A stretch of 64,000 nucleotides of DNA from the NCBI GenBank assembly GCA_965655095.1, contig OZ296657.1, forward strand, positions 84,878,001 through 84,942,000, in the 5' to 3' direction. The DNA is from Haplodiscus bocki (lineage: Eukaryota). Both the position numbers and the translations under genes were made by a program. Position 1 is the first letter of the stretch. Every line of letters begins with the position of its first letter. Below, piece by piece: positions 7,376 to 40,230 of this stretch. The notes beneath the pieces were generated by a model that was given only the letters and a program-made list of their open reading frames with translations, made no database searches and was not told where the DNA came from.

Positions 7376-8358
7376 TACTGAAAATCTTTAAGTTTAATTA
7401 ACCACAAAAGTAGCCATTTATTAGAAATGCGAGTTGCTTTTTAGGAGTTACCTCCTCCTCCGGGGCAAATTTAAAGCACTCGACTTCAATATGAGACAAA
7501 AATTTGACGGAAAATTTACATAATAATATTTCACAAGAAAAAGTATGGGCTCTTTAAGGCACCTGAAGGCTCTTCACTCACAAAGTAATTCCAACAAGAC
7601 GGCCGGCTACCAACGGCATATATTCCACCCACCAATCTTAATAAAGATGCCTCTTGAAAGATGGAAGCGTTTTTTTTCAGAATATTACTTTCTTCATCAA
7701 ACTTTGCAATTTCTCCAAATTTAAAAACTTCAAGTTTTTGCACAAAACCAAACAATTACGACGGAAAAGACATTGTCAAGAAGTAATATCCTTTGATACG
7801 CGTTCTACTAAAAATTTGATACAACAATTGAAACTCAAATTCAGAATCTGGGCGTTCTGCGAGTGTTATTGTTCTCTGTGAGTGTTATTGAGGGGATGAT
7901 TTTGCTTTCATATTATGAATATGGCAGAAACAGAGGAGCTCGAACAAACTCATTCAGAGCAGTATCTAAAGCGTTTTTATGTTACTTTATGGTGTAGGAA
8001 GAAAATGGAAGCTAATTTAGGAAGAAAAGGAATGAAATTTCGATTAAAAGCTAAACTTTGACTTTAGAGACTGACTATAAAGAATCAAGCGTATCAGAGT
8101 ATCATTATGGTGCATCAAACTATAATAACGCTGGACGCTTAAGTAGAAAGTTGAATTGGAATGCAAACAAAGATTTCAGAAAAACCGCAAAAAATATAAT
8201 TCCGCCGACTTACGGAATGATCTTGTCCCTAAAGCATTGTTTCCCAAAAAAATCGCTGTTTATCTTCGTTCGTATGCTGTTGAAAGGTGTATAGACTTGT
8301 AGCTAAACAGCTGTATCAGAAAGTAAGACTGCAAAAATTACAGGAAAATGTTTGGCTC

Positions 8359-9664
8359 AGCCTGAGGAATCGGAAAAGCCTTTTAAGTCACCGAGAAATC
8401 TGCATAAGGTTCGAGATATGAAAGCAAGATTTTAAAAATTCCGAAAATACTCGGACTAAGCACATATAAAATACATTATAAAATTTTTCGCCTGAACGTT
8501 AGTTTTTCTCCAAAAACTACGCTCATCCAAGTTCGAGTTAAAGTTGGGCGGAAATTTCTTTTGACAGATGAAGTACTGAAAAAGTGTGCAAAAATCGCGA
8601 ATTTTCCGAAAAATGGCTAAAGAACCTATCAGTAGTAGAAGAGGGAACAGAGTTGACGGGGAAGGGGGTTGAAGACCATATGTATTAAGATAGGGTATAG
8701 TTCGGAAATGTTCTGAGATAGGGCATACTCCGTTAAAGTATGATGTAATACATGGTTTCTCGCATGGTAGTCTCGGATTTAGAACATGGTTTCTCGCACG
8801 ATAATCCCCGTTTCCAATGGTTTCTCGCAGGGTAATGCCGGATTCAAAACATCGTTTTTCGCAGGGTAATATCCAACTAGTTCCGGGTCTCGACAAACTT
8901 CAGTTACATCCTGCATTGAAGTCAAATCAAACATTAGTACACAGTGGTATTTGAAATTGTCAATAGGAATTGAGGCTATATCAACTTTAAAGTCCATTGC
9001 TTCCCCTGTGGTGACATATGGGCGACGAACATTAGCAGCATCAAAGTCTACGAATGGCTGACCGCCTCACAGTATTGTGATTTGTCTGAGATCGAATTGC
9101 TGATTCCAGAATGGAGTTTCAGAGTACTATCCAGCGAATTCAATGTTTTTATTCGTTCCAGGAGCTATCAGACGAACTGGAGCATTGTTAAAAATGGTTT
9201 CTTGAATCAATCGGTTTTGTGTAGCGGGAATGATAAAAGTCTGCTACAGTCTCCAAATAGTTGAACTCCAATAGGGTATGTGCAAGCATGTCCATTCTTT
9301 TTTTGTGATATTCGTCTTCCAGAGTCGTACGAGTGGTCCTATAGAAGATGCAATTACGTGATGAGGATCAGAGTTGCAAAGAACAATTGGTTCTGTCACA
9401 ATCTTTGACGAATTGGATACATATATCAGGACATGTTTCCCTATCCACGTTGTCTTTGTAGCCTTGAAGGTCTCCTTCTGGACACAAATTGATTCAAACG
9501 CGAAACTTGCTAAATTTTTGATGAAATTTTGTTGATTCGTGTACTTTATACCAAAAGAGTCAAGCTTGTCAAAAAAGAGTTCTCGGATTTGATATGAGTT
9601 GGTCGGATGGTCATTCTTAACTCGTTCACTGCATCCGGCTAAAGGTCGCTCCAAATTAACGTGT
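8359..9664. repeat. Tandem duplication of the Polinton left junction (flank, TSD and TIR) followed by an inverted copy of the right arm
   Basis: 8359-~8945 matches 9665-~10255, including CCTATC|AGTAGTAGAA at 8625-8640. ~8945-9657 is a near-identical reverse complement of ~18912-19635; the ORF track shows the same peptides on opposite strands. Confidence 0.92.
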
Positions 9665-9937
9665 AGCCTGAGGATTCGGAAAAACCTTTGAAGTCACCGA
9701 GAAATCTGCATAAGGTTCGAGATCCGAAAGCAAGATTTTGAAAATTCCGAAAATACTCGGACTAAGCACATATGAAATCCATTATATAATTTTTCGCCAG
9801 AACGTCTAGTTTTTCTCCAAAAACTACGCTCATCCAAGTTCGAGTTAAAGTTGGGCGGAAATTTCTTTTGACAAATGAAGTACTGAAGTAATGTGCAAAA
9901 ATCGCGAATTTTCCGAAAAATGGCTAAAGAACCTATC

Positions 9938-10185
9938 AGTAGTAGAAGAAGGAACAGAGTTGACGGGGAAGGGGGTTGAAGACCATATGTATTAAGATAG
10001 GGTATAGTTCGGAAATGTTCTGAGATAGGGCATACTCCGTTAAAGTATGATGTAATACATGGTTTCTCGCATGGTAGTCTCGGATTTAGAACATGGTTTC
10101 TCGCACGATAATCCCCGTTTCCAATGGTTTCTCGCAGGGTAATGCCGGATTCAAAACATCGTTTTTCGCAGGGTAATATCCAACT
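9938..10185. repeat. Polinton-1 left terminal inverted repeat
   Basis: AGTAGTAGAA..CAGAGTTGACGG, then ATTAAGATAGGGTATA units and CATGGTTTCTCGCAGGGTAAT units; inverse of 20476-20998. Confidence 0.85.
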
Positions 10186-11349
10186 AGTTCCGGGTCTCGA
10201 CAAACTTCATTTACATTTTGCATTGAAGTCAAATCAAACATTAGTACACAGTGGTCATTGAAATTGTCATTTGGAATCGAGGGATATCATCTTGAGGTCC
10301 ATTGCTTTCATTGTAACATATGGGCGACGCGCATCAGCGGCATCGAAGTCTACGGTTGCCTGACCGCCTCAGTGTTTTGATTTGTCGCAGATCGAATTGC
10401 TGATACCAGAATGGAGTTCCAGTGTACGATCCAATGAATGCAGGGTTTTCATCCGTTCCAGGAACAATCAGACGAACTGGATCATTAATAATGTTTGCTT
10501 GAACGAACCGGTTTTGTCCAGCGGGAATGATAAAAGCCTTTGCGAGAGTCTCCAAATAGTTGAACTCCACTGGGGTATATGCAAGCATCTCCATCCTTTT
10601 TTTGTGGTAAACGTCTTGAGAGCAATACGAGTGTAAAGCGAACAGTCCTTAATTCCAAGACTAACGTTCGGGTTCTCGCCAATCATATAAAACTTAGGCG
10701 TGGCTGATTCGTAATCAAACTTTCATATATGGTTATAGCAATTCAGAAGTGAAAATATCATCACCCATTTATACCATACAGCATGAAGCCATCAAGTTTT
10801 CTCTTTCCGTGTGAGAAATTCGTTCAGACGAGGGTGCGTCCATTATCTCATCAGAACTTCCTTCGTAGTCTCACCCTTCTCAATACAAAACTTACGTGTA
10901 TTCGAAGATGGCTCCCTTGAAGTTGCTGGAAATGGAAGACTTGTATGCATATATTCCATTAGAATTGTGATTTTGCTGAGTGTTGATGTACACACTTCGA
11001 GATTGCAAATAGCGAATGCAAAATGTTTACATGTTTAACCAGCGGAACTGGAGAGTCCTCCTCCTCCGTTTCCTCATCTGCTGGCTATTTTGTTTCTTCA
11101 TTGTGTTTTTTTTAACTTCTTTCCTATTGTTAGCTTCCTAACCCCGACACTTGACAAATTTCAGTTTCTCAAATCAACGTAATAGTTCCGATCCGTTTGA
11201 AAATCAAACTGTACGCAGTTTTCATCGAGTGAAGTGCTAGGAAAATTTTCTTGTTCATGGGACGACAACACATCGTCAACTACTAGGACTTTTCCTGCAA
11301 AATTTCCAGGAACTGCCGTAAACGGTTGTTACCGAAAACTAATTGACAT
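10180..11349 (-). pseudogene. Polinton major capsid protein, left-arm copy, C-terminus truncated at the TIR
   Basis: VVDDVLSSHEQE..SLDENCVQFDFQTDRNYYVDLR; FNYLETLAKAFIIPAGQNRFVQANI; HCVLMFDLTSMQ; ends at PELVG fused to TIR repeats. Confidence 0.8.
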
Positions 11350-11701
11350 GAATTGAGAAATATTTGTAAAATTGTCTCTTCGCGACCGACTCCTTTGTTT
11401 TGCAGATTTTGTTCGGATGAACCTGCTTGCAGTCCTTTTTCTGCTTCCACTACCCATCTGTTTTCGCAGAGTTGGTCTTTCACACTCTTTGCTGCTGTCT
11501 TAAAATTCTAACAACTGCAATTTTGGGCGCAGGAAGTTCCAACAAGTCAGCACTCACACGTTTTGCAGCTTTGACCATGTACTTACGCAAAATTGGAATT
11601 GCGGTCTTCCCAATAGCTTGTGGAAGTGCAGCGAATCCCCTTCCACGCTGTCGACCAATACCTCTATAGAATGGAATTTCTACTGAACTTTAGGCAACCA
11701 T
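11350..11701 (-). pseudogene. Polinton small basic core-protein-like ORF (pVII/PZ-like) upstream of MCP
   Basis: MVA*..PFYRGIGRQRGRGFAAL..IGKTAIPILRKYM; homologous in motif and position to 60647-61240. Confidence 0.65.
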
Positions 11702-11719
11702 CTTGCAGCGTCTTTTTGG

Positions 11720-12480
11720 TAAGAATTGAATTTTGCAGGCTTTTCTAAACATCAAAACAAGACGGGTGTTACCGACAAGTACAGAGGGTTTTTTGTCACC
11801 GGTCGTGTTTCTGAAGTCGAAATGAATACTATGAATAGAAGTTTTGGGCAGCTGTCTGAACTTTAGGTTATTAAATATCTGATATTTAATGTACTACTGT
11901 GTAGTGGTTATCATGTCCCCTGCTTTTAACTTTGAAGTAAAGGAAAAGCAACGCCGTTTTTCTTCCGAGTAGTATCTGAAACTGCTCAATAGAAAGAGAA
12001 CATCCTTTCTTGACGGAAATTGTTCCAATTATGATAAGATGTTTCTTCAGTACACAGCAGCTCTTGAAAGTTACGCTATTGTAAGTTAATGGATATACTC
12101 ATTTTGCCAAGAGCACTTTGTATTCTTTCATTTTCAGATCGTTTTGGTTATCACTGATGTTTAACTTGTTTCAATAACGGTACACCACAACGTTCACCTT
12201 TCCTTTATCAGTCCTGAAGTTTACACATACTTTTCTCCTACCTTGATCTTTTGTGCATTTTAGGCCGGAAATTTTTTTGTGATCAGTTTTTGCATTATCT
12301 GGTAATTGCTAATTGTGACGACAGTCAGTGTAAGTTTTTTCGAGAGAAGTTTTAGAAGTTATTAGTACAATGTTAAAGTCCCATATTTGATTTTAGCTTG
12401 AGAAAGGTGTAACTTATCTCCTTTGTTCCAATTCATCGTAACTCGATTAGGATGAAAAATGATGAAGTAAATAGTTGCAA
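11720..12480 (-). pseudogene. Polinton minor capsid (penton-like) protein remnant
   Basis: C-terminus YQIFNNLKFRQLPKTSIHSIHFDFRNTTGDK...TRLVLMFR aligns by eye with the penton C-terminus at ~60310-60460. Confidence 0.65.
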
Positions 12481-13061
12481 TCACTCGTAAAGAACACCAC
12501 AAATGAGTTTATCGAAAATAATTCCATCATCTGCAGAATTCATTACATTAAATTGATAGATAACTTCATCCATTTCTTGATATAGATCATTATTTTGTTG
12601 AAATATCTTGACCTCCTTCTGCTTTGGAAGTAATCGGACTTCAACGTATGAACTCTCTGGCTTGTCTGCATTGTACAGCAGCAGAGTCACACAAATCTTT
12701 CTGTTTGCTCGGTAGACAACGTCAACTACATTGAGCTAGCTTTAGTTGTTCATCCTTATCGTTGGACATTGTTGGAATCTGTTTTGGAGTCAAGTTTTCC
12801 TCTTCTAAACTTTTCTGCTGTAACAATTATCTGCTTTCGTAGTCTCATAAACTCGTTGAAGTCTACTTCTTCCTTTGTAAGATTTTGTATCAGTCGGAAA
12901 TCTTTGTTGTCATCTTTCTTGAAAGCTTTGAGTTTTACATCGAAGTACTTGGCGTCTTTTTTGGACCAGAAAAATCGTCAAAATCTTTCTTGACTTTTAC
13001 CAAAGTCCACATAGTCGGTACAAGTTAGCTGGTCCAAGGAAGGAGTAGTGTTTTAAGCCAT
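12481..13061 (-). pseudogene. Polinton accessory ORF, possible PC4/PUR-fold ssDNA-binding protein
   Basis: MA*NTTPSLDQLTCTDYVDFGK..RFFWSKKDAKYFDVKLKAFKKD..FRLIQNLT..EVDFNEFMRLR; beta-beta-beta-helix pattern. The fold assignment is inference. Confidence 0.4.
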
Positions 13062-14169
13062 GGGTTTTGGTTGTCGAGATAATACGGTGGTAGCTGAAAG
13101 ATGTGATTTTTTTCAGATTGAAACTTTAATTGTTTTTAGAACTGCAAGTTGTTGCTTATATGCATTTTTTTTCATGGTCCTTGTCACTCTATTTGGTCAT
13201 TATCACGTGATGATTCCATATAAGGCGATTCGTTCCTTCTTTGATCCTTGTCTCTGGATATTTCCATATATGGAACCTCTTTCCTCTTTTTGGTAGTGTT
13301 TCACAAAAAAATTAGTTTTACTTTGTCTTGCAGATTCATTTGTTCAGGAAAGATCTCAACAATCCGATGGCAGGTGTAATGTTACAGGTGATCCGAGCTT
13401 TTATGTAAATTTTTCAAAAAACAGTCTGTTTTTTCTGCTAACACATATTAAAAATACGTACTATTAACGAATAGTGTATTGCCCACCACGTTGACAAGAT
13501 TTGCTTCCTTCCCGATGGCAGATATCACATTTTACTAATAGGAGACTTTGAAGAGTTGCTACAAAATTTAGACGCGTTCTGCTTCAAGTACAAACACGTG
13601 GACTGCCCATCGACACTTTTCAACTATCTGTTCACTGATAAAATTATTGCCAATAGTGGACAAGTGTTTGTGTCTGGTAATGTGCAGAGAGCAGTCTACT
13701 TTAATCAAAGAAACAGGAATGGATATAATGCCCGGCATCTCCAAAAACACTTTTAAAAAATAAGTAAGAAAAGAATTTTTTGTTCTTTCCAAAAGACAAT
13801 ATCAAGGCAAACCAGCGGATCAGTCTCTGCAGAAAGAATAGAGCATTTGAAAAGAACGAATTCGAATTAGAACTGACAAAAATTGCAGATTGTTTTCTGG
13901 ATGTTTTTTGTAATTTTAGTATTATAGTAACTTTCAAAATAAAATCTTTATGAACCAATCATTTTTTGGATCCCGAAGGCATCTGTAAAAGTCAATTGGT
14001 ATTGCAAAGGATAATCATCACAGCCATCATCAGTCCTACAATAATGAAGAAATCAACAAATAAACAGACATCACCGATTATGAGAGAAACTAAAGTTGAA
14101 CAACCCTCGCAATCTTTTATTCAATTAGACATTTTTTGTGCTCGAACCTGAAAAGCAAGTCTGAATTTT

Positions 14170-14665
14170 ATTCAGAAATTTCACGTCTCAGATTTTGATT
14201 TGAAATTTTTAACCACGTGTCAGATTTTGTATTGGAAATTTGGAATCATGTCAGATTCTGAAGGAAAAATTGGCTGAAATATCACATTTCAACTCATCTT
14301 ACTCCCTAAAACTTCACCTTTTGCATTTTTGGTGCTTTCTTGAAAGGCATCATTTTGATAGCAATTTTTTGAACGTGTCAGAATTTGATTTTGACCCTTT
14401 TAACGTACCAACTTTCGAAATAAAAGTTTTTCGATCTGTCAGACTTTGAATTGATTTCAACGTGCCAGATTGTGAATTAGAAATTCACCATTGTGTCATA
14501 TTTTGTGTTTAAAGTTTTTCAATGTGTCAGATTTTCAATTGACAATTTTTCAACGTGCCAGGGTTTGAAATAAAAATTAACCAATGTGTCAGATTTTGAA
14601 TTGAGTTTTTTTTGAACTTTGAACTTGTCAGATTTCGACAAACGTGTCAGATTTCGAATCAAAAG
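14170..14665 (+). repeat. Internal minisatellite, about 13 degenerate copies of AACGTGTCAGATTTTGAATT with ~30-32 bp period
   Basis: Recurring (C/T)GTGTCAGATTTT core from 14182 to 14660. Confidence 0.85.
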
Positions 14666-15999
14666 TTCTTCATATCTTCTAATGTTAAATTCGAACCTAG
14701 CTTCAGCACTTGTATTTTTCATAATGTTTACCTCTATACCAACATGAACAATTACGGCTTACATCATCTTCGCCACTTATAAATTAGCATTTGCCGTAAG
14801 ACAACAGTTCCTGTACATTTTTCACAGGAATTTTTCAATTTTGATTCTGCTGTGGTATCCCATTTTTTTCTGTGCATGAACTTGTTATTAACAGAAACTA
14901 GCTGCTACTAATAGGATTAATGATGACGAAACTAGAGCTGTTTTTCTCTCACACGTGTCTGACTAGTTACTGAAGGCGACGGAGAAAAAACGAAACACGT
15001 TAATTATTGTTTGCATTGAAATACATACACAGTAATACTTCTTGAAACAAATTTCTGTAGACATAATCGAGAACTTTTCGTGTTTCAAAAGGACAATTTC
15101 TCAGCAAAGCACGGCGTCGAGTTGGTCTGTAAGAAACTGGAATTGTTGCAGGAGGAGAGTTCTCCATGTGTTTCTCTTCAATCGAATCCGGTTTTCATCC
15201 ATTGAGCCTATCTCAAAATCGTTGGAAGTTGAATGGGAAAAGGGAGTGTTAATATGTCTGGTCGAAAGGCTGCATCCATGCTTTAGTCAGGATCCTCCCG
15301 GTGAAACTCAATGTCCTCCACAACGGTGCGCCTACACTTGAGTACTTCATCCCTCATTTCATATGTTCCTTGTTGGTTTGGGTTGATTGTGGTTCGAGCC
15401 AAAGGATTAACCAAAACTTGTCTTCGAACTCATTGTCATTTCATGGACGAGATCATTTACAGCCAGAATAACTGGATCTGGAACAAAGTCGAGAGACCAC
15501 TGGATTCCTTCGTTGGAAACGGAAAAGATCATGCTGCATAACTGTATTGTATTGCATTGAAATTGTATAAAATGGGACTGGAATAAAGTTTTTGAATAAT
15601 TGTTTTAATTAATGGGAGCTCGACACGATTATGCTAAAAATGATTGGTTTTTGCCTGTTTGGACACATGTTCGGATGATGCTGATTGCGACTGGCGGAGA
15701 TACTTTTGTAGCAAGGGGGACGGTTTTTCTGCTGCCTAGTCACCACTCTTTTTGGTAGAACAATGAGTAGCATCTCAACCGAATAAGTTCATGCCGGTTC
15801 TTGTTTTTTTGAGTGGAATAATAAACACATGACAGCTGGCTTTGCTTTTTTTGCAGTGGTAGAAACTAATTGCAGAGTTTTGCTTGGTTAAATTGTAAGC
15901 ACACTGTTTTTTTTTAAAATTCTTGCATTTTACAACTCCGCTAAGAACTTGAATTGACTTTCGCGTCTCAGCAAGAATCTAAACACCTCGGTTACACAT

Positions 16000-16757
16000 C
16001 AGGTAGAACGAGTTTGTTTGTTCTCCAAAGGGAATCTGACCGAAGTGACATATGGACGCGCATTAAGGAGATTTATAATCGCTTCTTCCGAGAGTTCTAA
16101 AAAAGTCTTCTTGTACACGCAAAGTTTCCCAGAACATATTCGGACCGCACACGTTCTCAATAAGGTTATAGACGCTACTGTCATACCGACCATCAGGGTT
16201 GAGCGTGCTACACATCGTAAAAGCTTTCAATTTTTTCACGGTTGTTTGCAACGTTATATTGGTTCTTGCGGTGGTAAATGTGGTAAATTTCGCGATCGTT
16301 AAGGTTGACAATTTCTGTAGGTATGGATTGATTACCATGTAGTTCAAAACTTCTTGATGGAAAAAACGCAAGATACGTTTTTTTCACAGCGGAACGATAA
16401 GCGAATTTGTCTGTTTGAATCTTCAGTGATATCTTTCTATTAATGAGCCTGGAGATAATCTTTAGATTTCGCAAATCCAATCTCAATTTTCGTTTTCGGT
16501 AATGCAATCTGTAAACACTTGCTAGCTTGATCAAAAGCTTTGGGAAATTCGCGAGAACTGTCAGCCAAACAACCAAGTATTTTTTGGAAATATTCAGTAC
16601 TTCTTGATGGATTTAACGCTGCTGTGTCTTCAAATCGCAAATATTTGGTTGTAAAAGATTTTTTGTTCGAGCCTTTGCTAACTCGTGCTATTCGATGCTG
16701 GGACTGGGAATTGTCAAAAATGTGATAAAAAGAAATTTCTGCAATCGTTTCGTCCAA
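16000..16757 (-). pseudogene. Polinton accessory ORF (frameshifted)
   Basis: Three overlapping minus ORFs (16440-16757, 16208-16576, 16063-16371) look like one broken reading frame; function unknown. Confidence 0.4.
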
Positions 16758-17254
16758 GAATTCCGCTGATGTTTTTTCTTAAAATGAATACTGGTTGCTT
16801 AAACTGAGAATTTGCTCTTCGACAGATATGCTGGTTTTAGTCAGTAAAATTAGCAATATGATTTTATCAGTGGTGTAGCGATAAAAGAGATGCGGATTGG
16901 TTAAGGATTGCGATTTTCAGCTATGGCATCGCTTTTTCTACAATCAGATTCAAATAGTTCTGTAGTGACTTCAATTTGTGAAACTGGTATAGTGATTGAA
17001 AGCTTGATAAGTCCAGTAGGTAACTGGAAGAACTTATAGATAATTCCATGAAGCGCGGAAGCTTTTAACCGTTACGCTACAGACTGTGGGGAAAATTCAA
17101 TTTTCATTCCTATTGAGGTATTTTTGATTCACAGTTCGGGTGAAAGTTAGCAAGACAGATTTTACTTTTCCAGAACTAGCTGTCTCCCAATCGCGAGAGC
17201 TCGTTTTACTCGAGTGATTTCTGAGGCAAGCTACTTCCTTTTCCGGTGAATGTG

Positions 17255-17400
17255 TTCAACTGGAGGAATTTTCCCAGACAACGTGTCTCCCTATCAAGGG
17301 AGTTTGTTCCACTGGATTGATTTTCTCAGACAGTCTGTCTTCATATCAGGGAGCTTGATCCACTCGACTAATTTCCTCAGACAATAAATCGCCACTGGAG
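17255..17400 (+). repeat. ~52-bp tandem repeat (about 3 copies) in the divergent intergenic region of Polinton-1
   Basis: ACTGGA..ATTTTC.CAGACA..GTCT..ATC.GGGAG.TTG.TCC at 17259, 17311 and 17362. Confidence 0.7.
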
Positions 17401-17706
17401 AAGATTAAATGTTTATTTAACCAACTTTTTCTCGTGGTAATATGTCAGCTGTGGAGAATGATAAGTTGATGGACAGTTCGTTTTATGGGTATTTTAGTTA
17501 ATGTTTCGTTTTTTGATCACGTGATTAATCTTTCTTCTTATGGTCCTTTGAATCTATCGTTCGTTTTAGTCTTCCCGTACATAGTAAAAAAAAAGTAGTG
17601 AATATCCTTTGCTATATATTTTCCGCCATGACTTCTCTTGCTACATTCAAGTTGCTACAACCTTTACGCCACTTTCAAATTTTTCTGTTGAACAATTAGT
17701 ACTCAA

Positions 17707-19240
17707 ATGCCTTCACTCAATCGCTACGAAAAAGTTACTTTCGAAAATTGTGGTGCCCAAACTACCAAGCTTACTCTTGCTCATCACAAGAAAAGTTTTT
17801 CTGCTTTGACTTGGTATTGTACCCAGTGTCCCATTTTCTCCTTAAAATCCCGAAATGTTTTGATTTATCATGATCCTAAGAAGCACAGCGCTCCAAAACC
17901 TGATGCTACCTTCGAAGTGCAAACATTGTTAGAAATACTTTCCCGGGTTTTAGGCTTTACGACAACATAAAAACACTAAACATAGCTTTACTTTTAGGAC
18001 AGCAGTTGTTGATCCTGAGCGTAACACCGACGAAGTTAATTGTACGAATCTTAGAGGAGCTGCGTTCATGTCAGCATTTACTCGGTGTCTCTGACTTTAA
18101 AAGCGCGAGACACAAAGCATTCAGTTATGCTAAAAAATCTCAAGGCAACAATGCTGGAGGAGAAGCTTGATTACTTTTTCAACAACTTAGAATATGCAGC
18201 AAAAGTGAGTATAGCTCTTGGGTTCTTTCTAGAAATATAGGAGTTTGAACATTCAGATGTTTTCACGCACATAACAACAGGACACTGCTGGATCGATCAA
18301 ACTTCTGGGCACCAGGGACGATTTGACAAAGCTGAGGGATCTTGTCAACAGAAGCAACGTCATCGAGTCGTGTAGTAGAGAAAGGATGAACACAAATTGC
18401 AGGTTCTTCAGATAAACTTCACAGTATTTGCTGCTTGATTCAAAGATATACCTATGGGTTGCAACGATGCTGTTTTACCCGAACCTCTACTGAGAAACTG
18501 CGCAATCAGCTGTATCATGTATGAAGAGAATACAAGATAAGCATGTAACGACAACATGTGCCTTTTTAATGAGCTTGCTCTCCATATACATGGAAGTTTA
18601 TACCACTGGAAGAAGAAATTTGAAAAGTTTTGTTCATTTAAAAATACAATGGATGGAATCAGTTCCAGGAGGTCCACACAAACGAGATTCAGGTTGTTGA
18701 GGATCTGCTAACACTCAATCTTCTTTTGTATTATATAAATAATGTGGATGAGAACAGTATCGGAGAACCTCCTAGACGAAGTGTGCAGAAATACGAAAAT
18801 ACTGTGCGACTGCTGAGATACAACAACCATATATTTTATGTGAGCAACTTTAATGCAGTCTTCCAGTTTTCTTGATTTCCTGATTTTGAGAAGTTCTGCA
18901 ACAGAACATTGAATTTGGAGCGACCTTTAGCCGGATGCAGTGAACGAGTCAAGAATGTCCATCCGACCAACTCATATCAAATCCGAGAACTCTTTTTTGA
19001 CAAGCTTGACTCTTTTGGTATTAAGTACACGAATCAACAAAATTTCATCAAAAATTTAGCAAGTTTCGCGTTTGAATCAATTTGTGTCCAGAAGGAGACC
19101 TTCAAGGCTACAAAGACAACGTGGATAGGGAAACATGTCCCGATATATGTATCCAATTCGTCAAAGATTGTGACAGAACCAATTGTTCTTTGCAACTCTG
19201 ATCCTCATCACGTAATTGCATCTTCTATAGGACCACTCGT
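17707..19240 (+). pseudogene. Protein-primed DNA polymerase B, N-terminal part (C2H2 fingers to the Exo I region), truncated
   Basis: YCTQCP...HDPKKH C2H2-like; NDNMCLF..LALH; LLRYNNHIFYV; LASFAFESIC (F-D-F-E-S Exo I-like). Joined at about 19240 to MCP sequence. Confidence 0.65.
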
Positions 19241-19830
19241 ACGACTCTGAAAGACGAATATCACAAAAAACAAAAAAAGAATGGACATGCTTGCACATAC
19301 CCTATTGGAGTTCAACTATTTGGAGACTGTAGCAGACTTTTATCATTCCCGCTACACAAAACCGATTGATTCAAGAAACCATTTTTAACAATGCTCCAGT
19401 TCGTCTGATAGCTCCTGGAACGAATAAAAACATTGAATTCGCTGGATAGTACTCTGAAACTCCATTCTGGAATCAGCAATTCGATCTCAGACAAATCACA
19501 ATACTGTGAGGCGGTCAGCCATTCGTAGACTTTGATGCTGCTAATGTTCGTCGCCCATATGTCACCACAGGGGAAGCAATGGACTTTAAAGTTGATATAG
19601 CCTCAATTCCAATTGACAATTTCAAAGACCACTGTGTACTAGTGTTTGATTTGACTTCAGGGCAAGATGCTACTGAAATTTTTCGCTAACCAGAACTAGT
19701 TGGAGATCCACTGAGACTGGAGCTGAACTCTAGTTTTCCTCTAGAAAAAGTCACTGAACTCATTGTATTGGGAGCACGATTGTCTTCGGTTGCAGTTGAC
19801 AAGTTTGGTGTTGTTGGAAAGATTAAATAA
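19240..19830 (+). pseudogene. Polinton major capsid protein C-terminal part, right-arm copy
   Basis: EFNYLET; FKDHCVLVFDLTSGQD; PELVGDPLRLELN..FPLEKVTELIVLGARLSSVAVDKFGVV. Confidence 0.8.
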
Positions 19831-19831
19831 A

Positions 19832-20223
19832 ATGGATGAGGTTGCTCTCCAGCAGATAATCAAACTTATCGCTACACTCGAGTATCGGTAACTTGGTTCT
19901 GTCATTTCAGATTATATACCAACTCTTCCAATTGAAACTTTTGCCACTAAAACTACGCCACCCAGCCATGTGCAAGGTGAACACTGGATAATGATTGAAA
20001 ACTTCCGTCACAGACTGTGTTTTACAGAATCTATGGCAAGTGAAAAGTACAGTTTCCTCAAGGAACACTACAAGGAGATGAGGCCAGAACCACTACAGTC
20101 CAATCCCATCGAATGAGTTTTCTACACTATATATATGCAGCTTTTCATCTGAAACTCCGACAAGTAGAAATTACTGGAGTTCACAATGTCAATATGTTTT
20201 CATTTATAAGTAACTACATGTAA
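19832..20223 (+). pseudogene. Adenain-like cysteine protease
   Basis: MDEVALQQII..LGSVISDYIPTL..GEHWIMI..PLQS..FYTIY; directly follows MCP, as in element 2. Confidence 0.8.
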
Positions 20224-20475
20224 TAAGTTCTCCTTTATAGTGTAAGTGTGCCGGGTATACAATGTTTTTGTTCTGATTTGTAAGGTCTAATTAACTTTTT
20301 TTGAACCTGAAATCAACTTTCCTGCATAGCACAACAGCCAAAACAGTATCCGCTGCCATCATTAACTACCTGCAGGCGTCATATTTAGTCCACGCCGTAA
20401 TGATTATCTGCGCGCTCAGCTTCGAATCCAGAATGTGTCGTGAACTTTTATTACAAAATTTCAATTGCTTAATCA

Positions 20476-20998
20476 CGGGATTATCCTGCGAAAAACCATG
20501 TTTTGAATCCGGGATTACCCTGCGATAAACCATGTTTTGAATCCGGGATTACCCTGCGAGAAACCATGTCGTAAATCCGGGATTACCATGCGAGAAACCA
20601 TGAAATATAACATACTTCCACGGAGTATACCCTATCTTAAAACTTTGCCGACCTATACCCTATCTTGATACATTACTTACATTACTGAGCTAAACCCTAT
20701 CTTAATACATTTCTGAACTATCTTGATACTTTACCGTCCTATCTTAATACATTGCCAAAATATACCTTATCTTAAAACATTGCCGATTTATAGCCTAGCC
20801 CAATACATTGCAGAAGTATACCCTATCTCAATGCATTACCCAACTACACCCTATCTTATTACCTCACCGAACTATACGCTATCTTAATACATTGCTGTCG
20901 TCGAAAAGTTATCGGCCTCCAATCAGAATCGAGTATTACCACTCGGCAGCCAATCAGAATCGAGCATTACCGTCACTTCTGCTCATTTTTCTACTACT
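20476..20998. repeat. Polinton-1 right terminal inverted repeat with two minisatellites and a CCAAT doublet
   Basis: About 4 x 34-bp CGGGATTACCCTGCGAGAAACCATGTTTTGAATC (20476-20605). About 9 x ~30-bp TATACCCTATCTTAATACATTGCCGA (20625-20895). CCAATCAGAATCGAG twice (about 20918-20968). Confidence 0.9.
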
Positions 20999-21884
20999 CC
21001 TATCATTAAAATTAAATAATTACTTGAAAGCTTCAAAATGTTGTTTTTAGGGGTTAAAAAAGTGCACGCTTGTTTCATCACTCTGTCATATTTGCATTCA
21101 GAGTGTAACGTAGGTAACTTTAAGTGAGTAAGGCAGAAATGTACGAATTCAGCTATGTCCCGTCTGAAAAGAGTCCGCGTTGCCCGTCGTCCCCATATGA
21201 CGTTTCGTCTTCGGTAATTAAAAAAAGATCAGTGTCTTCCCTACAATATCTTTCGCCTTCGATATTTAAGAGTCGTCCAGAAGTCGATGTTTAATTAAAT
21301 GAAATTAAAGGAAACGATTGGTGTTAGAAATCAAGCTGTCGTCAATATGCCTGTGCAATCAATTGATCGATAACTAATAATTGATATCCGGCGAACTAAT
21401 TCTTGATTTATTGAAAAATTTTCGATAACCGGAAGTTATCTCGATTTTTTCTTCAACTGACTTTTGAAGTTTCAATTGGAGTTCCAGCTGCTAAGTTTGC
21501 ATAAATTGTCGACAAAGAAGATTTAATGTTCGCTAATTTGGGTTTTTTCGGTCATCGTGGAACATTTTTGACTGAAACTCTATTAGAAGCGCTTTTGCTG
21601 CGCTACGTCTTCAAGACTTATGGAGTCTGAAAAATGTTCAGGGTAATGTGTACATTTTCACAAGCAGTTTTCTAATGTCGGAATAATTAAATGATCGATA
21701 ACTATTTATTTTCTCCCATATATTTAATACTTGGAAGGAAAATCATTCGTTCACAGTTAGGTCTTCTGTAAAGAATCTGCCAATTCCACGATCAACTCCT
21801 GTGCACCGTCAGCGAATACCCGGTTCCGATAGGTCGAGGCAAAAGCCCGAGAAAACGGCTACTATTAATAGCATGACGTCATCA

Positions 21885-21951
21885 AATACTCGATTCTCAT
21901 TGGATGAAACGAAAAATCGCGGGACGTTTCAGCCAATAGGAATCGAGTATT
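21885..21951. repeat. 27-bp imperfect inverted repeat with paired CCAAT boxes, preceded by a CRE site (TGACGTCA 21874-21881)
   Basis: AATACTCGATTCTCATTGGATGAAACG ... CGTTTCAGCCAATAGGAATCGAGTATT. Confidence 0.75.
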
Positions 21952-22060: not shown

Positions 22061-22355
22061 TGAATTTCTTCATGTTAATTTTGAACGGGGCAAAAAATAT
22101 CTTGGAGGTAGCCGGTTGTATTGTTGGAATTTTATATTAGTAATTTATTGATAATTGATTGAAAGTCAACTTTCACTAATCGGACAGACCCCGTCCCCTG
22201 ATATATTCAAGGAAAACATAGATACTCATATGCCAGGTTGGCCTACACGCTTTTCTCAATAATTTAGCCCTGGAATTCATGCTGCTATTATTTCTCTATT
22301 CTATAATAAACTATATGATTGACAATAAATCCAATGAAATTTCAGGTTGACATAC

Positions 22356-22566
22356 CTTTTCTTTGTCGGTTGCGAGCAACTTGGGGTTGTCTCTGGGTTT
22401 GAGCTTACCAGGTGCGTTTCTGGTCGGCAAGCAAGTGTGGAAGAGAAACAGTTTGCCAGTTCTCCCGTCAGACTTGAGAGCATCGAGACCAGCTTGCATC
22501 ACTGGACCTAAGATGGGGTCAATCTCTGCATTGCACGCAAACTGTTGAGGAATCTGAGAAAGCACT
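22356..22566 (-). CDS. SEC24C: SEC24C/D exon (trunk domain)
   Basis: PVMQAGLDALK..GKLFLFHTCLP..APGKLKPRD..LLATDKEK; phase 2 acceptor matches the previous exon; AAG|GTATGT donor. Confidence 0.95.
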
Positions 22567-23085
22567 CTGAAACAAATATTACTTTTTAACATTATCAAAT
22601 ACCACCAATAATATTCTACCGTGGCTTTGTGTTGCCACCAGCTTGTGACCTTACATTTTGCTCTACTCAAGATTGCACTCCATTAGAAATTTTCTTGAGA
22701 AAACATTGAGAAAAACACATTTTCTTTAGTTATTCAATTGAATAACATGTTCCCATTGGAGAAAAGGCAATGTAAAAATTGAAGACTGCAAGATTTATCA
22801 TTCTCTTGCAAGTGCAGGAACAGTTTGGCATAAGTCTAGAAGACTAATTGCACGGATTCTTACAGACAATACATGACTCCATTAAGATTCGATCTCATAA
22901 TCTTTCGGTTAGTCAAACACATTGGCAAATGACCAACGTTCCTCTCAAGCTCTCCAGCAGATTAAATTTTTCAAACAATATTTAGATGGTTCTTCAAAAT
23001 TTTCCGGAGGCTCTCAAAGGTTATTTAGCAAACAATTGCTATATACATGCGATCTTGCTGAAGATATGGAAAAATTGGGACATAC

Positions 23086-23672
23086 TTTTCGATAACCTGT
23101 TTCGTTTCGGGTGTGAACTGAACAAGACATCCTTCTAAACTGGGTAGGAAAATATCATTCACATCAGCTACAACTTGCATTTGTGGTCTTGACTGCGATT
23201 TACTCAAATTGTAGAAGTGAACAACATGTGAATATGTTGCGAAGCCAACTCTGATTGGAGATATTTCTCGATTTTCAGCACCAATCATCTTAGGCAAAAC
23301 TTCAAGGACGTGTTTCAGTTTGTTGCACAGCAAATTAACCATGCCCGATTTGATCGCATTTGCAGACACGTCAATCATAAATATGTAAGCCGGTTCTTTG
23401 GGAAGAGTTTGGTTTTTGCAGTACTCTGTCGGAGCTAGGAACTCATAGGACCCCACACAAAGTTCAGGGCGTTGATATGTATCCATTCTAAGTCCAGTGT
23501 GGTCCAGGTGGCAAAAATACTTCTCGGGGACTTCGTTTACACAACCACACAACAGACATTCAAACTTGCGACCTCCGTCCACAAAAACCATCAGAGGAGA
23601 CATGTAGGCTTTGCAACGGTTGCACCGTATGGGAACTCCAGTAGACGAACAATCGGCAGTCGGAATTGGACT
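23086..23672 (-). CDS. SEC24C: SEC24C/D exon (zinc finger and start of trunk/vWA domain)
   Basis: RCNRCKAYMSP..FVDGGRKFECLLCG zinc finger; RPELCVGSYEF; PAYIFMIDVS; VGFATY...HFYNL. These motifs are diagnostic of the SEC24C/D subfamily. Confidence 0.97.
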
Positions 23673-24194
23673 CTAGAAGCAACGCATGATTTAAAATTTA
23701 CTAGAAATTGTAGAAAAAAACACCCGAAAACACATTCTAGCAAGTGCAAACAAGTGGTTTCGAAAATACTCGATAACTTCCGGATAAAATTCGTAACATA
23801 CGCCATATATCTAAAAATCAAGAACTTTCCAGAATAAACTGATAGTTCTTGAAAGTGATAATTTGGCTAAATTCATCATTTCCTTTCGGAAGCAGCGATT
23901 GATGTAACTACTGAAAAGGCATTAATCGAGCGTTTTGAGTCGCCGCGTTTAATTATACTACAAAGCCTGACTACAGTAGTACTGTTTTATTTATTTTTTC
24001 ATGATGACAGACCTCACTCTGTATACGTTTTTACTAACCTTGCATATTTTTGCCCACTATACCCACATTCATATTTTAATAAGTAGAACAGTTTTACCAA
24101 CTTCAAAAAGTTTATACAAAAATTGAAAATTTATGCACAGACATACCCAACTATCAAAACATTTGTCATATGATTTCTTCAAAAATTCAAGCAA

Positions 24195-24415
24195 GAGCCA
24201 ATTCCAAAAACTTTTGTGATACCCCCCATTTGAGTACCAAGAGGAAACCATAGTTTTTTGAAAAACTTCGGGCCTCCTGTCCAAATTTTTCGATTATAGG
24301 CATTGCGTACAGCAATTCTTTCCGAAAAATTGAAAGTTTTCCAACATCAAAGCATCCCGTCCTATGAGTACTTTGAGCCTTGCGGGCGGCGTCGACTTGG
24401 CCGTTCTCGAACAAG
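24195..24415 (+). repeat. Dispersed repeat family, copy 1 (copy 2 at 28396-28600)
   Basis: GAGCCAATTCCAAAA...GAAAGTTTTCCA.CATCAAA...GTCCT.TGA.TA.TTTGAGCCTT..GGGCGGC is shared by both copies; GC-rich hairpin at the 3' end. Confidence 0.65.
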
Positions 24416-24561
24416 AACTAAATTTTAGTTGAAATAGTTTTAATCTTAATACAAGAGCACAAAGCTTAGCAACTCAACGGAAGATCTAGTTAATCAAAAT
24501 TTCTGGGTTGCCAAAAATAACTCAACAATTAGGCTGCAGATTATACATGGAAGCAACTCAC

Positions 24562-24810
24562 TTCCATACTGTCCAATTGGGCGTAGGGTTGCAAAGCCAT
24601 ACAAATTGGAAGCCGCGAACTGTTGCACATGTCTTTGGTAACGGGGAAACTGTACACAGTGGATCTCAGGAATTGGGGTCGACAATTTCCCTGATCAACA
24701 GACACGAACATGGTTGTGCAGAGAGGAGGGGCTCCCGCTGGCTGCATCCTGTTCCCAGTCTGGAACGGCTCGTCTCCTCTGTTCTTCTGATCTTCCAAAA
24801 GCACTGTGAT
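24562..24810 (-). CDS. SEC24C: SEC24C/D exon
   Basis: ITVLLEDQ...PPLCTT..DQGNCRPQFLRSTVY..P (Sec24 DQGN.SPR.RST motif); GT-AG, 83 codons. Confidence 0.93.
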
Positions 24811-25492
24811 CTATAACACAAAGTGAATAACCACCTGCTCATGTTTTAACAAAACCGTCTCATTGTCCTAGCTTAACTATTTTTTGTATGAAGAAGCGCC
24901 TCTAATTAATTTTGATTTTAGATCAAGGCTACATGACAGTCAGTACAAGTGAATTTCAATTCTTTCACTTAAACAGCTGTTTCATTCCATTTTAAAATAT
25001 AGCCTCCCAATGCACAGAGGACTTCGGACTTTTTTGGTTTGATCGCTCTGATCGCTCCTATGATGGTCCATATGGTCCCTCCTGTACTCCCACACAGCTT
25101 TACTGCATTTGGAAAAAATTGAAATTTTTCAGATGTCGCACGAAATTCCTTATTTTGGACGAGGTCGCACAATGTCGTACGAAAAAGCGTCAAAAAACAA
25201 AAACCGACTAATACTATTAGTACGTCGTAAAACTAAATTTTTCGCCACGTCCTAAAAAGCCCCAATTACATAACAATTCAAATTTAATATCGCACATCAA
25301 ATCTTCGACCAAGATAGCAGCAAGCAATAATGACCCATTTTGAGTGAAATAAAACGCAATCGCGAACTAGAAATGGTTCTTTATTTCCTGGTTCTTTAAG
25401 CAACACATTTGAACCAAATCATTTTAGTTTTCCTTCGGCAATTCGGTGTTTCATTCTAAAGTTTGTGAAAAAAGGTGACCCATTTTACTAAC

Positions 25493-25629
25493 AGGACTGG
25501 GCATCAAATCAGGATCCAATCTGTTCCTTGACTGCTGAGGAGGTCCCGGAGGAGAGCGGGGAGGATGGCCACCCATAGAGTCACTCGGTCCCATTGGTGG
25601 TGGAGGTCCAGCCGGCGGGGGTCCCATGT
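25493..25629 (-). CDS. SEC24C: SEC24C/D exon
   Basis: ttccag acceptor; ends RLDPDLMPSP (cf. the conserved LDPD.PSP motif of SEC24C/D); GTTAGT donor. Confidence 0.85.
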
Positions 25630-26163
25630 CTGGAAACACAAACTCTCAACTTATCACAACTTGCGAACAACAATGATATCCATTTCTATAAATCGCATCA
25701 AGTTTACTTTCCGTTATTGAGTGAATAAGAATTACAACCAAAATTCTGATGCAAAAATCAATCAATGAGCTGAATGTTCTTAGACCTTTTTAGGCGATTC
25801 AAGATGTTGCGGCCAATCAAAGCTTAAGTACGAATATGAGTAGAAATGGACAGCATTGATTAAGGTCTATCAATTTGAAGAGTCTCATTTTTCAACCCGA
25901 TTACCCAGAAGGAAGTTGAAACCGAGCCGAAATTCAGTGACAAGATTTCACCTCAGCCAGGAAAAGACAACACTTGAGAAGCAGAACAAAACAAAATGAA
26001 GCCCAAAGGAAATAAAATCTGGGGCTAAAAAAGAAATAATTATCTCCAAAATTCAAACAATCAACTCACTGCACGCAACCAAGCCATCAGCGATCACTGT
26101 TAAGGGAAACAATTATTGCCATGAAATCAAATGAAAGAATTTTCAAATTTAGGAGATACAAAC

Positions 26164-26340
26164 TTGTCTGAGGAAGGGTGGGTGGCTGAGGAGGAAAATT
26201 GGGATTCATTGGCCCACTCGTTGGAGGCATCGGTGGAAATCCAACAGGTGGTCTCACGTTTCCAGGGTTCATATTGTTGGGTGGAAGGGGAGCTCTGTAT
26301 GGCTGTGAGCCAGGGTATCCGGGCATCGGAGGTCCAGGAG
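26164..26340 (-). CDS. SEC24C: SEC24C/D exon (Pro-rich)
   Basis: tattttag acceptor, A|GTTTGT donor, phase 1-1, PGPPMPGYPG...PPTLPQT. Confidence 0.8.
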
Positions 26341-26568
26341 CTAAAATAGAAGTCAAAAACTTTTATTTGCAACTCTATGTATTTGACTTCTCGTTCTTTC
26401 TACTCAACTAAAAGAAAAAACTACGCCTTTTAAAGACTAAATTATCCAAAAATTATATTCAGCATTTGATTACTATGTCGGCTTGTACTGAAATTATTTT
26501 AAAGTCGTATTTTTTGAAAACAAAGTAGTCTGATGAACCCAATACAGCATCAAAAATTTCAAACTTAC

Positions 26569-27382
26569 TGTATTGTGGTGATTGAAAATGATGGGGTGGT
26601 CGATTATTCGGTGAAACTTGTTGCATATTTGCTTGATAGGATACATGACTCGAGGTCGGTGGTTGCTGAGGGGGAGCTCCACTATTCGGGGCAGCGGGGA
26701 GACTCTGTTGTACAGGCAATCCAGCGGAAGGAATCTGGTTCATTTGGTTTTGGGGAGCGCCTGGTGGCATAGGGGGACCCGGAGGAGACACCATCCCCTG
26801 TTGGGGATAAGTGGGTGTTTCTGAGGTCGGAGGGAATGACTGAGGAGGATATTGATTAAAGTTTTGCTGTTCTGGCGGATTTGGGTAACACTGGTACTGT
26901 TGCTGTGGGTGATGGTTGTTGCTCTGCGCAACCGGTGTAGGGGTTGACTGCTGAATGTTGTAATTAGGACGGGAAGTTGAATTTGGATGCACACCATTCA
27001 CAATCGACGTCTGTTCTGACTCGGCTGAATTTTTGTTTTCGTTACTTGAACTGTTCACATTCTCTGATTTTGAAACTTGATGGCCGGCACTGCTCAAATC
27101 ATTCGCATGATGCCCATTTGCTAAGCCTCCATGGCTTGATCCAACCTGAGGAAAATTGTTCGGCCCTGATTGATGACTGGAGTTCAAGGTAGGTCCAGTA
27201 GGGGTAGCAATTGTGTCAGGAGGAGGCCGCGCCATTTGCTGTTGTTGCCATTGAATAGCACTCGGATGCGCTGGAAAAGATGGATGTTTGCCCGGTGCCA
27301 TCTGATATTCATATGGCTGTTGCATGGCAGGGTTTTTATTCACTTGGAACGGAGGCGCAAACTGAGACGGATGAGCCGGCAT
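26569..27382 (-). CDS. SEC24C: SEC24C/D exon (first identified coding exon; Pro/Gln-rich N-terminus)
   Basis: Pro/Gln-rich ORF MPAHPSQF...SPQY. Acceptor tttttcag at 27398-27399 lies just upstream of the ATG at 27382; donor A|GTAAGT at 26568. An upstream exon may exist. Confidence 0.8.
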
Positions 27383-28059
27383 TCCTCTACCTGGGCCCTG
27401 AAAAAAGCAACAGCAATGTTTTACTGAAGGTCCCCTGGGCCTTTTATTAGCAAGGATGACCAATTATTCATGGCAATGAATTGTTGCGAAAACTTTGAAC
27501 CGATCAATTTCTGCAATTACTGGAAGCCTGAAAACCATCATTTTGCGCTCCAAAATTGATATTAATTGAACGTCAGCAATCAAGAGGCCTACATCAACCC
27601 CAAAATCTGAAATAATTGTTATAAGGTTTCAGAATTTACAAAGCCACTCCTCAACTTGGCGTTTTTTGATGAAAATACAACAAATTTTCCCCGAATTTAT
27701 TTCAGGGACATGATATGATAATAGGCCTTTGGCGGGGCTCGAACATCGAAGCGAAAGAGTTTGAAAGGTTCGCCGAATTAACATCTTTGAAGTTCTAAAC
27801 AATCAAACGAAGAAAAAACAATGAATTAAACTATTTTAAAACTTGATTCGGGTCAAATTTGTTATTTTGCAAAAAAAATTGAACAACGGATATTCGAAAA
27901 CGAAAAAAGTGCATAAATTTTCCACGAGGGCTGTGTACATAAAGATGCCAGGCTGTTTAGACGCAGGTGAAAAATAAATGGAGTAGTCAATATGATCTAT
28001 ATAGGAAGATCATCAAATATGGCAAGAAAAGAAACTTTACCAATTTTACAAATTTGGAA

Positions 28060-33044: not shown

Positions 33045-33880
33045 AACAAGACGGCCGGCTAGCACCGGCATATTTTTCGCCCAACTACAAATATTTTAAT
33101 CAACTTTTACAAACAGTTAAAAACAAAACTACTGTTTTGATATTAGTTTTCAAAGAATTTTTACAAACATCAATTCCACCACTGATTTCTGTACTTTGTG
33201 CAAAAAGGTATCACGATTTTCCGTTGAAAAATTTTCGTCTCGCAGTGCCGAAAAATTTCGATGAGGAACCCTTCTGTGCTGTGTTTCAGAAAAGAAAATT
33301 TCCGGTAGCGAAAACGTTTAGGGATAAGAGGGGGGGGGGGAGGAGTATCAAGATTTTCCGTCGAAAATTTTTTGTCTCACGGTCCCGAAAAATTCCGTAG
33401 GGGAATCCTTTAGTCTTTCATTAATTTAGGGTATCGAAAAAATTTATGGATAAGAGGGTGGGGGGAGTATCAAGATTTTCCTTCGAAAATTTTCTGTCTC
33501 ACGGTGCCGAAAAATTCCGTAGGGGAATCCTTTAGTCTTTCACTAATTTCGGGTATCGAAAATGTTAGCGATAAATCGTAAAAATATTTGGTACGACAAT
33601 GACCCGAACCTACTGCTTGAGAACCTTGTTGTCCTAAACCTACTGCTGTCATTTATTTTTGAATAAAAAGAGTTGGCAATTTTGGTCTGAAAAAAAAAGA
33701 AAAACAAATATGAATTTACACTTCTTACATGTACGCATTTAGATTGCTGGCTGCAATATACACTGCTTACAACCAAAGCTTCGTTCACAATTTCGATGCC
33801 TACAATCGACCCTAATATCTAAAAAACCACGAGGTGTACCTTCGGATTCGATACTGAAAAACAAAAACAAAATTTTCAAA
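33045..33880 (-). mobile_element. Putative non-autonomous Helitron-like element carrying a ~122-137 bp tandem repeat
   Basis: Minus-strand end GCCGGTGCTAGCCGGC hairpin followed by CGTCTTGTT; the same end occurs at 7593-7630. The far boundary is uncertain. Confidence 0.4.
33208..33572 (+). repeat. Three tandem units of ~122-137 bp (GTATCAAGATTTTCCG..TGCCGAAAAATT..GGGGAATCC..GATAAGAGGGGG)
   Basis: Unit starts at 33208, 33345 and 33467. Confidence 0.85.
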
Positions 33881-39399: not shown

Positions 39400-40230
39400 C
39401 GAAAAAAATCATTTGAGTTATCCCCCGAGACAGTTTTCCTCACTCAGTCGTCTGGTCTGGGTACGTCTGTCTAGAAGCGAAGGTATTTAGAAGTGAACCG
39501 TCTGTCTAGAAGTGAACCAATGATCGTTTGGAGTCTTCGAGGAACGAAAGAAAAGGGGTGTTTGGCGATAAGTCCCACTTTTTTTTTCTGATAAAGTTTT
39601 TTCATGGTGTTCGCCGCAAATGTTTTTTCCCGTTTATCGCCCGAATAAACCAATTGTTGCGATATTCCTATTGAATAACTTGATTTTTGAAATAGGCCCA
39701 CCAAAGCACGGTAAAATTCTGTGACAAATAATGAAAGCAAACATGATGATTCAATGCATCTTTCAAGGCACTGAGATTGATCTGGACAGCAAAGATTGTC
39801 TTTGCTGTCCAGATCAATCTCACCTATATGTGGACATCTATATGGTTACCCAAGCGCATATCAAAAACCTTCATAAATCACCCCGTTTTACGTGGTTTTT
39901 GCTCTGCATTTGGTTTGAAGAGTGCAAAATATCGTCACCATCAAAAACTGCCGACAGTTCGGGTTTATATTGTGCAGATTGAAATGAGCAGTATTGTTGA
40001 CGAGACAATAACCACATTTCGGGGTTAAGTGGAACAAAAACGAGGATGTCTATGCCGTGTCGTAGAGAAGGCAATAGTTATCAGGGTAACGATATATAAA
40101 CGAGATATCAGTGTCTATCATCGCCTGCCCTCCAGAAGCCCGGGATCACACCCAACAAAAGCGAACTTTGTCTGACGTGAAACCAAGTTTCACGTTACCA
40201 CACACAAAAGAAATTCAAAATACTCAATAA
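39400..40230 (+). mobile_element. Possible Tc1/mariner transposase remnant
   Basis: PDQSHLYVD (cf. SDE.HF) and PSRSP(D)HT (cf. WP.RSPDL.P) in the expected order; heavily decayed. Confidence 0.3.

Follow-up and report, generated by a model that had tools for sequence, protein, structure and literature searches.

A decayed Polinton of Haplodiscus bocki with pieces of its likely capsid gene in both arms: probably one fossil that was rearranged, not a union of two viral genomes

Animal Polintons or Mavericks (adintovirus-like elements) are bounded by terminal inverted repeats (TIRs) with (AGT)2//(ACT)2 ends and a 6-bp target-site duplication (TSD), carry penton, core, major capsid protein (MCP) and protease genes in that order together with a gene like that of protein-primed family B polymerase (pPolB), and are decayed in 96% of their vertebrate copies (PMC8097293). 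Butterfly polintons bear the MCP at both ends, in inverted arms beside the protease, within gene-bearing TIRs of ~2 kb; the insertions are recent and full-length, and each such gene is present twice (10.1101/2025.02.07.637071). Among cut-and-paste transposons, Galileo of the P superfamily shows extended or recombinant TIRs (2RT), in which sequence beside one TIR recurs inverted beside the other, coding sequence is lost and a few hundred bases of spacer DNA are recruited (PMC3573991). Snap-back or copy-back genomes of adeno-associated virus have the same end on both sides, have lost replication genes and require a helper (PMC8235507). PMC10748475 and PMC6431247 contribute general ranges only. 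Here we describe an element of ~11 kb, at positions 9938 to 20998 of a 64,000-nt stretch of Haplodiscus bocki DNA (GCA_965655095.1, OZ296657.1:84,878,001-84,942,000; hereafter the window, to whose positions all coordinates refer), that has something of each of these systems. Snap-back genomes are also known from adenovirus.

The element shares with animal Polintons the terminal motifs, the TSD, the TIRs, the apparent capsid gene order, a putative pPolB-like gene and the usual state of decay; it is unlike them in its length of only 11 kb, in having no integrase, ATPase, PZ or catalytic pPolB half that we could find, in carrying a piece of the MCP at both ends and in that every gene is broken. 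The terminal motifs, the TSD and an adenain-type protease mark it as derived from a Polinton, and the failure to find a retroviral-type integrase and a packaging ATPase as not a complete one. Its arm of ~1.75 kb resembles the ~2-kb arms of butterfly polintons, whereas its MCP copies are partial, 16% apart and apparently dead before they split, and the protease stands on one side only. Like Galileo it has TIR-adjacent sequence repeated in inverted orientation and has lost coding sequence, although what it recruited are capsid and protease genes. Unlike snap-back genomes, it appears to have been copied from a template already decayed, has an unpaired middle of 8.6 kb and shows no sign of replication or packaging. 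The inverted same-end duplication of a defective-interfering genome is present, but a shared stop and rare residues argue against a functional replicating template. Capsid genes at both ends (butterflies) and TIR extension (Galileo) are already in print; in the literature covered, which includes few subscription papers, we found no report of a Polinton between TSDs whose capsid arm is partial, decayed and copied from the element itself.

What is seen is probably one fossil element that has been rearranged, not a union of two viral genomes. The specific reading that we favour, and that we rate about evenly between right and wrong, is of a single dead Polinton in which one TIR was extended in place by copying from the element's own opposite end, with deletions thereafter. 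The locus would then be a worked example of Polinton TIR extension, in which coding DNA was recruited into inverted arms by self-copying and the arms went on to drive further rearrangement of host DNA, and it would offer a route to the gene-bearing TIRs of butterfly polintons. The element has no function of its own, and as one decayed locus in a very abundant family it carries small general weight. Its features are as follows.

9932-9937: left TSD, CCTATC.
9938-10177, plus strand: left TIR, 240 bases, with the AGTAGT end at 9938-9943 and without most of the inner repeats of the right TIR.
10178-11349, minus strand: left MCP pseudogene, matched with relatives (tblastn) to residues 1 to ~409 of a 449-amino-acid relative; several frame changes and stops.
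11400-11701, minus strand: core (PW-like) pseudogene, labelled by position; read-through relatives P0106 and P0034.
11720-12450, minus strand: penton (minor capsid) pseudogene, limits approximate.
12450-16930, mostly minus strand: remnants of family open reading frames, at high family depth in contigs.
16931-17706: gap in which gene direction flips, with a tandem repeat of 52 bases (17253-17384); the window agrees with contigs 16853-17332 and 17304-18386.
17707-19240, plus strand: N-terminal half of a pPolB-like gene, residues 1 to ~523 of a relative, ending before the exonuclease and polymerase motifs.
19234-19830, plus strand: right MCP piece, residues ~250-449, aligned over 19252-19821 to residues 254-447 of a 449-amino-acid relative.
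19832-20220, plus strand: adenain-type protease pseudogene, located with relative P0121.
20480-20998, minus strand: right TIR of 519 bases, containing repeats of 34, 28 and 31 bases, with the ACTACT end at 20993-20998.
20999-21004: right TSD, CCTATC, spanned by contigs 20941-21895 of runs X1, X2 and X4 with zero differences.

A first-pass annotation of the window, made from the letters alone, had described AGTAGT/ACTACT ends with a 6-bp TSD, and both are as it described: CCTATC is identical at all six bases at 9932-9937 and 20999-21004, a 6-base match expected by chance at ~3e-4. It had further treated the locus as a single TSD-flanked structure; the ends and the TSD bear this out, but the junction of TSD and TIR is present twice on the left, the second time at 8625-8870. 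The TIRs are 80% alike at their tips (6/30 bases differ) and 85-86% in their cores (26/189 mismatches, 13.8%), and they differ internally as had been noted, most inner repeats being absent from the 240 bases of the left one and present in the 519 of the right. CCTATC, the TSD hexamer, occurs again as the core of the 28-base repeat in the TIR (20620-20895), probably by chance.

The fold-back geometry, with the same end on both sides, is equally firm. Positions 10176-10605 and 19270-19707 form an inverted arm of 440 bases at 82% identity, scoring 422 bits against at most 40.1 in 20 shuffles. A simple internal inversion is ruled out, MCP residues 254-409 being present twice. The junctions that had been put at 10180 and 19237 fall at 10177/10178 and 19234-19247. 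At the first, the left MCP runs directly into the TIR with 3 bases shared, and its last 40 codons and the protease are absent; the proposed leftward order of penton, core, MCP and TIR stands, with the qualification that this MCP is cut short and not followed by a protease. At the second, an 8-base MCP stretch overlaps the final pPolB codons, and alignments of relatives agree with the right arm as first described, an N-terminal pPolB half fused to the MCP C-terminus and followed by protease and TIR. The protease is present on the right side only; since relatives read through from MCP into protease, that order is native.

Whether the two arms go back to one genome or to two can be asked of the MCP pieces themselves, which had been called visibly diverged and differ at 73/444 positions (16.4%) with 10 gaps. 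Mismatches fall 23/23/14 on the three codon positions, with no third-position excess, and over 114 codons pN/pS is 1.14. Between two active lineages most differences would be silent. Searching with the right MCP piece, restricted to proteins of at least 290 residues, gave 537 relatives among 1327 candidates, the best 120 of them at 66-74% identity. Of 124 codons compared between the two pieces and these relatives, 7 were gapped and 5 lay in variable columns, leaving 112: both copies read as the relatives do at 61, the left alone differs at 16, the right alone at 14, both differ but unlike each other at 9, and both differ alike at 12, one of these being a stop at 19507. Of the 12 shared residues, 108 of the 120 relatives carry none, 11 carry one and a single relative two. 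Since these relatives are the best matches to the right copy itself, an intact subfamily with the shared residues should have ranked first among them. Neutral divergence together with 12 shared rare residues, a stop included, leads us to infer that both MCP pieces descend from one gene that was already broken.

This bears directly on the original proposal, by which two distinct but related genomes of a replicating population became linked head to head through the same end and were then inserted together as a single unit. The geometry, the TSD, the 16% divergence of the MCP pieces and the unlike TIR interiors would all suit such a union; the divergence is not mostly synonymous, as it should be between two active lineages, and the stop and rare residues common to both pieces indicate a single source that was already dead. 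Chimeric Galileo copies whose TIRs come from two subfamilies, moreover, lack matching TSDs (PMC3573991). We regard the joining of two genomes as largely refuted and very improbable.

The divergence of the TIR cores does not differ from that of the MCP pieces (p 0.47), so that core and arm would last have been identical at much the same time, as expected if the TIR was copied along with the arm. Ends as old as the first damage should have diverged by an estimated 22-30%, for which the core mismatches are too few (binomial 0.0013 at 22%, 0.058 at 16%).

A common clock would also be shown by a unit that had folded back from a single dead template, whether in a replicating copy or elsewhere in the genome, and been moved in trans by the enzymes of an active relative, its ends identical at insertion and all later change being decay. 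Tips, TIR core and MCP pieces are indeed all 14-20% diverged; the perfect TSD and the state of the tips lean this way by a likelihood ratio of ~2, and polintons without polB are reported still to be mobile (10.1101/2025.02.07.637071). Helpers existed, given how abundant the family is: summed contig depth, which we do not take as copy number, is 1e5-1e6 at conserved sites and ~40 for single-copy pieces. Such a history nevertheless asks for an already decayed copy to be excised and replicated, and no sister copy was seen. At 19563-19573, amid the shared changes, summed depth is 0-70 against 1e4-1e6 at nearby sites, a weak sign that no abundant sister family carries them; no relative among the 120 has more than two of the 12 residues, and pPolB-MCP fusion proteins number 0 among 120 pPolB and 162 MCP-set relatives, itself a weak negative. 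Mobilisation in trans therefore seems to us unlikely, though worth keeping in view. It is likewise doubtful, to the same degree, that the locus represents a folded-back dead Polinton moved by a helper, intermediate between autonomous Polintons and giant palindromic satellites and a route by which gene-bearing TIRs originate. Sister insertions with other TSDs, if they exist, would show directly that fold-back derivatives of Polintons are mobilised in trans.

A different account of the same clock is that long TIRs holding MCP and protease are native to the family. Two deletions would then have removed the right-hand DNA between mid-pPolB and mid-MCP and the left-hand protease, and the shared damage would be due to arm-to-arm conversion once the element had inserted, or to a parent that was itself defective. 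The precedent is close, butterfly polintons having ~2-kb TIRs with hexon and adenain in two copies per insertion (10.1101/2025.02.07.637071), and in run X1 the summed depth at 19775-19780, close to the MCP end, is about twice that at 11392 or 13031, with the reservation that depth is no copy number. The 12 shared changes demand an extra conversion or a dead parent, however; the sole upstream context seen for the MCP is the core gene (P0106, P0034 and L001), and none of 24 loose ends considered out of 17,890 branches upstream of the MCP, which weighs weakly. We hold native gene-bearing TIRs to be improbable on balance.

For in-place extension in a single dead Polinton we envisage five steps, among which the native layout, the direction of copying and the in-place occurrence of the third are what we infer. 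An element with gene blocks pointing apart would have inserted, making the TSD, and then decayed. A break in its right half would have been repaired from the left end, with TIR, protease and the last 200 MCP codons copied and the new arm rejoined to pPolB at the few bases shared near 19237; rejoining would have removed the catalytic half of pPolB and probably the ATPase and integrase too. The left arm may then have lost ~770 bases (the MCP end and the protease) and its inner TIR repeats, so joining MCP to TIR at 3 shared bases. Lastly, the two inverted MCP pieces would have driven a further template switch, by which host flank, TSD and left TIR were duplicated with an inverted piece of the right arm. 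Extension in place requires a native layout with gene blocks pointing apart, and Mavericks of the cane toad are described with such outward-pointing modules (PMC8097293). In Galileo, TIR extension has been proposed to come about through repair templated by the opposite TIR (PMC3573991).

Several observations weigh against this history. The native layout of this Polinton family was never seen: scans for related DNA found none in viral contigs or prokaryote genome contigs and a single 1055-base contig in JGI metagenomes. Identical TSDs with 6/30 tip differences favour an insertion no older than the arm copy, at a likelihood ratio of ~2, and a second element in the window has its integrase just before the penton, a place where this element has none, which the model leaves unexplained. 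Four of the 12 shared residues adjoin each other and may be one event, the shared stop could have arisen twice, and decayed sisters escape a search for relatives of at least 290 residues. The argument from depth is weakened in that contigs fitting two places were divided between the two. Finally, among 32 contig pieces considered out of ~149,000, none bridges 9657/9665, 10177 or 19237. The reads come from four runs on two samples of one study, as short-read contigs only; three of the runs are one sample, which may be the window's own source, and 15 of 3045 joints were considered. Contigs at single-copy depth with 0-2 differences cover 7500-8414, 13688-15462, 16853-17332, 17304-18386, 19795-20522 and 20941-21895, the last bridging right TIR, TSD and host.

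That arms of this element recombine in place is evident from a second left junction just upstream, missed in the first pass, which belongs to a 1307-base tandem unit (8359-9664) followed by a second copy of the host flank.

8359-8624: host flank, first copy, 94.7% identical to 9665-9931; contigs of runs X1, X2 and X4 join it to upstream host DNA with zero differences.
8625-8870, plus strand: second copy of TSD and left TIR, matching 9932-10177 at 245/246 bases.
8871-9657, minus strand: chimeric piece, left-type MCP to ~8934, then inverted right arm (MCP piece, pPolB/MCP junction, pPolB piece).
9665-9931: host flank, second copy, after a 7-base link.

The inverted piece copies 18912-19707, the junction at 19237 included, and is 99.2% identical to 18912-19625. 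Informative sites are left-type at 13/15 over 8868-8934 and right-type at 68/68 over 8950-9312, so that the template was switched between 8934 and 8950; the second junction lies at 9657-9665, with 7 linking bases and no long homology. Because the unit includes host DNA, the switch postdates insertion. The pattern matches that described as DUP-NML-INV/DUP, in which one switch within oppositely oriented repeats leaves a chimera, another occurs without long homology, and a direct plus an inverted duplication result; it differs in its kilobase scale, in lying in or beside one transposon and in its uneven divergence (PMC6902434). The duplicated parts differ at 14/266 bases in the flank (5.3%), 1/246 in TSD and TIR (0.4%) and 6/707 in the right-arm piece (0.8%), the first 80 MCP bases at 6%; the unevenness is significant (p 0.0009 and 7e-5) and could stem from a template on the other homologue or from later conversion.

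So close a match of the inverted piece to the right arm raises the question of an assembly or amplification chimera, affecting mainly the unit at 8359-9664. The three inner junctions are bridged by no contig among the pieces considered, and three of the four runs may share their source with the window. Yet arms 16% apart with one common TSD are beyond what an artefact can make; the flank copies differ at 14/266, and in both samples letters belonging to the second copy turn up at the first. To judge from the graph geometry, moreover, a real branch into the second flank copy would break off the host contig at 8414, which is where it stops. An artefactual origin of any part strikes us as remote.

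The gene names are less firm than the geometry. In 12 minus and 6 plus frames of the element, Pfam gave no family at its curated cut-off; P0121, the protease relative, matches Peptidase_C5 at E 0.0028, below the curated cut-off. The MCP, in Polintons a double jelly-roll protein and here with no sequence match in Pfam or PDB, is tentatively so labelled from an Atlas lead (PF21738 on 24% of one cluster, score 0.98, a recognition under the tool's bar), its length and its position before the protease. The core pseudogene matches the second element's gene weakly (E 0.018), and L001 is collinear with the element over 10797-11760. The penton, a putative label taken from its position, matches the like-placed gene of the second element over 11735-11890 (28%, E 2e-5). 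We take the pPolB-like gene to be such from polymerase motifs that lie further on in its relatives, which themselves have no Pfam polymerase match.

The first-pass annotation had recognised no integrase, ATPase or polymerase catalytic domain, and profile, Pfam and relative searches agree. Profiles for the first two and for PZ were built from relatives of the second element. That for integrase (54 proteins) reached at best E 0.86 in the element against 7e-125 in the second one, where an integrase only 35% identical still finds the decayed copy at 6e-38; that for ATPase (2 proteins, a weaker test) reached E 1.3, with no Pfam match in the 12 + 6 frames, and that for PZ (8 proteins) E 0.47; all three match the second element strongly. 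Downstream halves of six pPolB relatives had no match in the 64-kb window. The remnants at 12450-13100 and 14700-16930, those of accessory genes, have many unnamed relatives (one frame of 14700-16900 has 238 at E<=0.001); neither Pfam nor Atlas matches them, and the gene near 16.2-16.9 kb has no usable Atlas match. By eye a Walker A motif could be read near 15650 and a C-terminal polymerase motif near 16150; neither held. The flank at 9665-9837 was rejected as pPolB, 4/120 relatives extending there in a gapped, weak alignment. A 31-33-base tandem array lies inside the element at 14188-14604.

Elsewhere in the window, the second element is a distant decayed Polinton from an AGTAGT end at 54081 to ~63200, with an MCP ~30% identical. 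All on the plus strand, it reads ATPase (Pox_A32, E 9e-5), PZ-like, PHD-like, integrase (rve, E 8e-5), penton, core, MCP and protease; it gave no pPolB match, and no right end with a matching TSD was found after 62600. Some 1.3 kb from the right end of the first element, on the minus strand at 22311-27463, stand what we take to be host-gene exons resembling Sec24C/D, which mark the host as a eukaryote, likely an animal. Fragments at 36516-38800, 31377-31715 and 1525-1932 presumably derive from reverse transcriptases of non-long-terminal-repeat retrotransposons. A 122-base tandem repeat occupies 33197-33562, and a near-perfect palindrome of 51 bases lies at 39772-39822.

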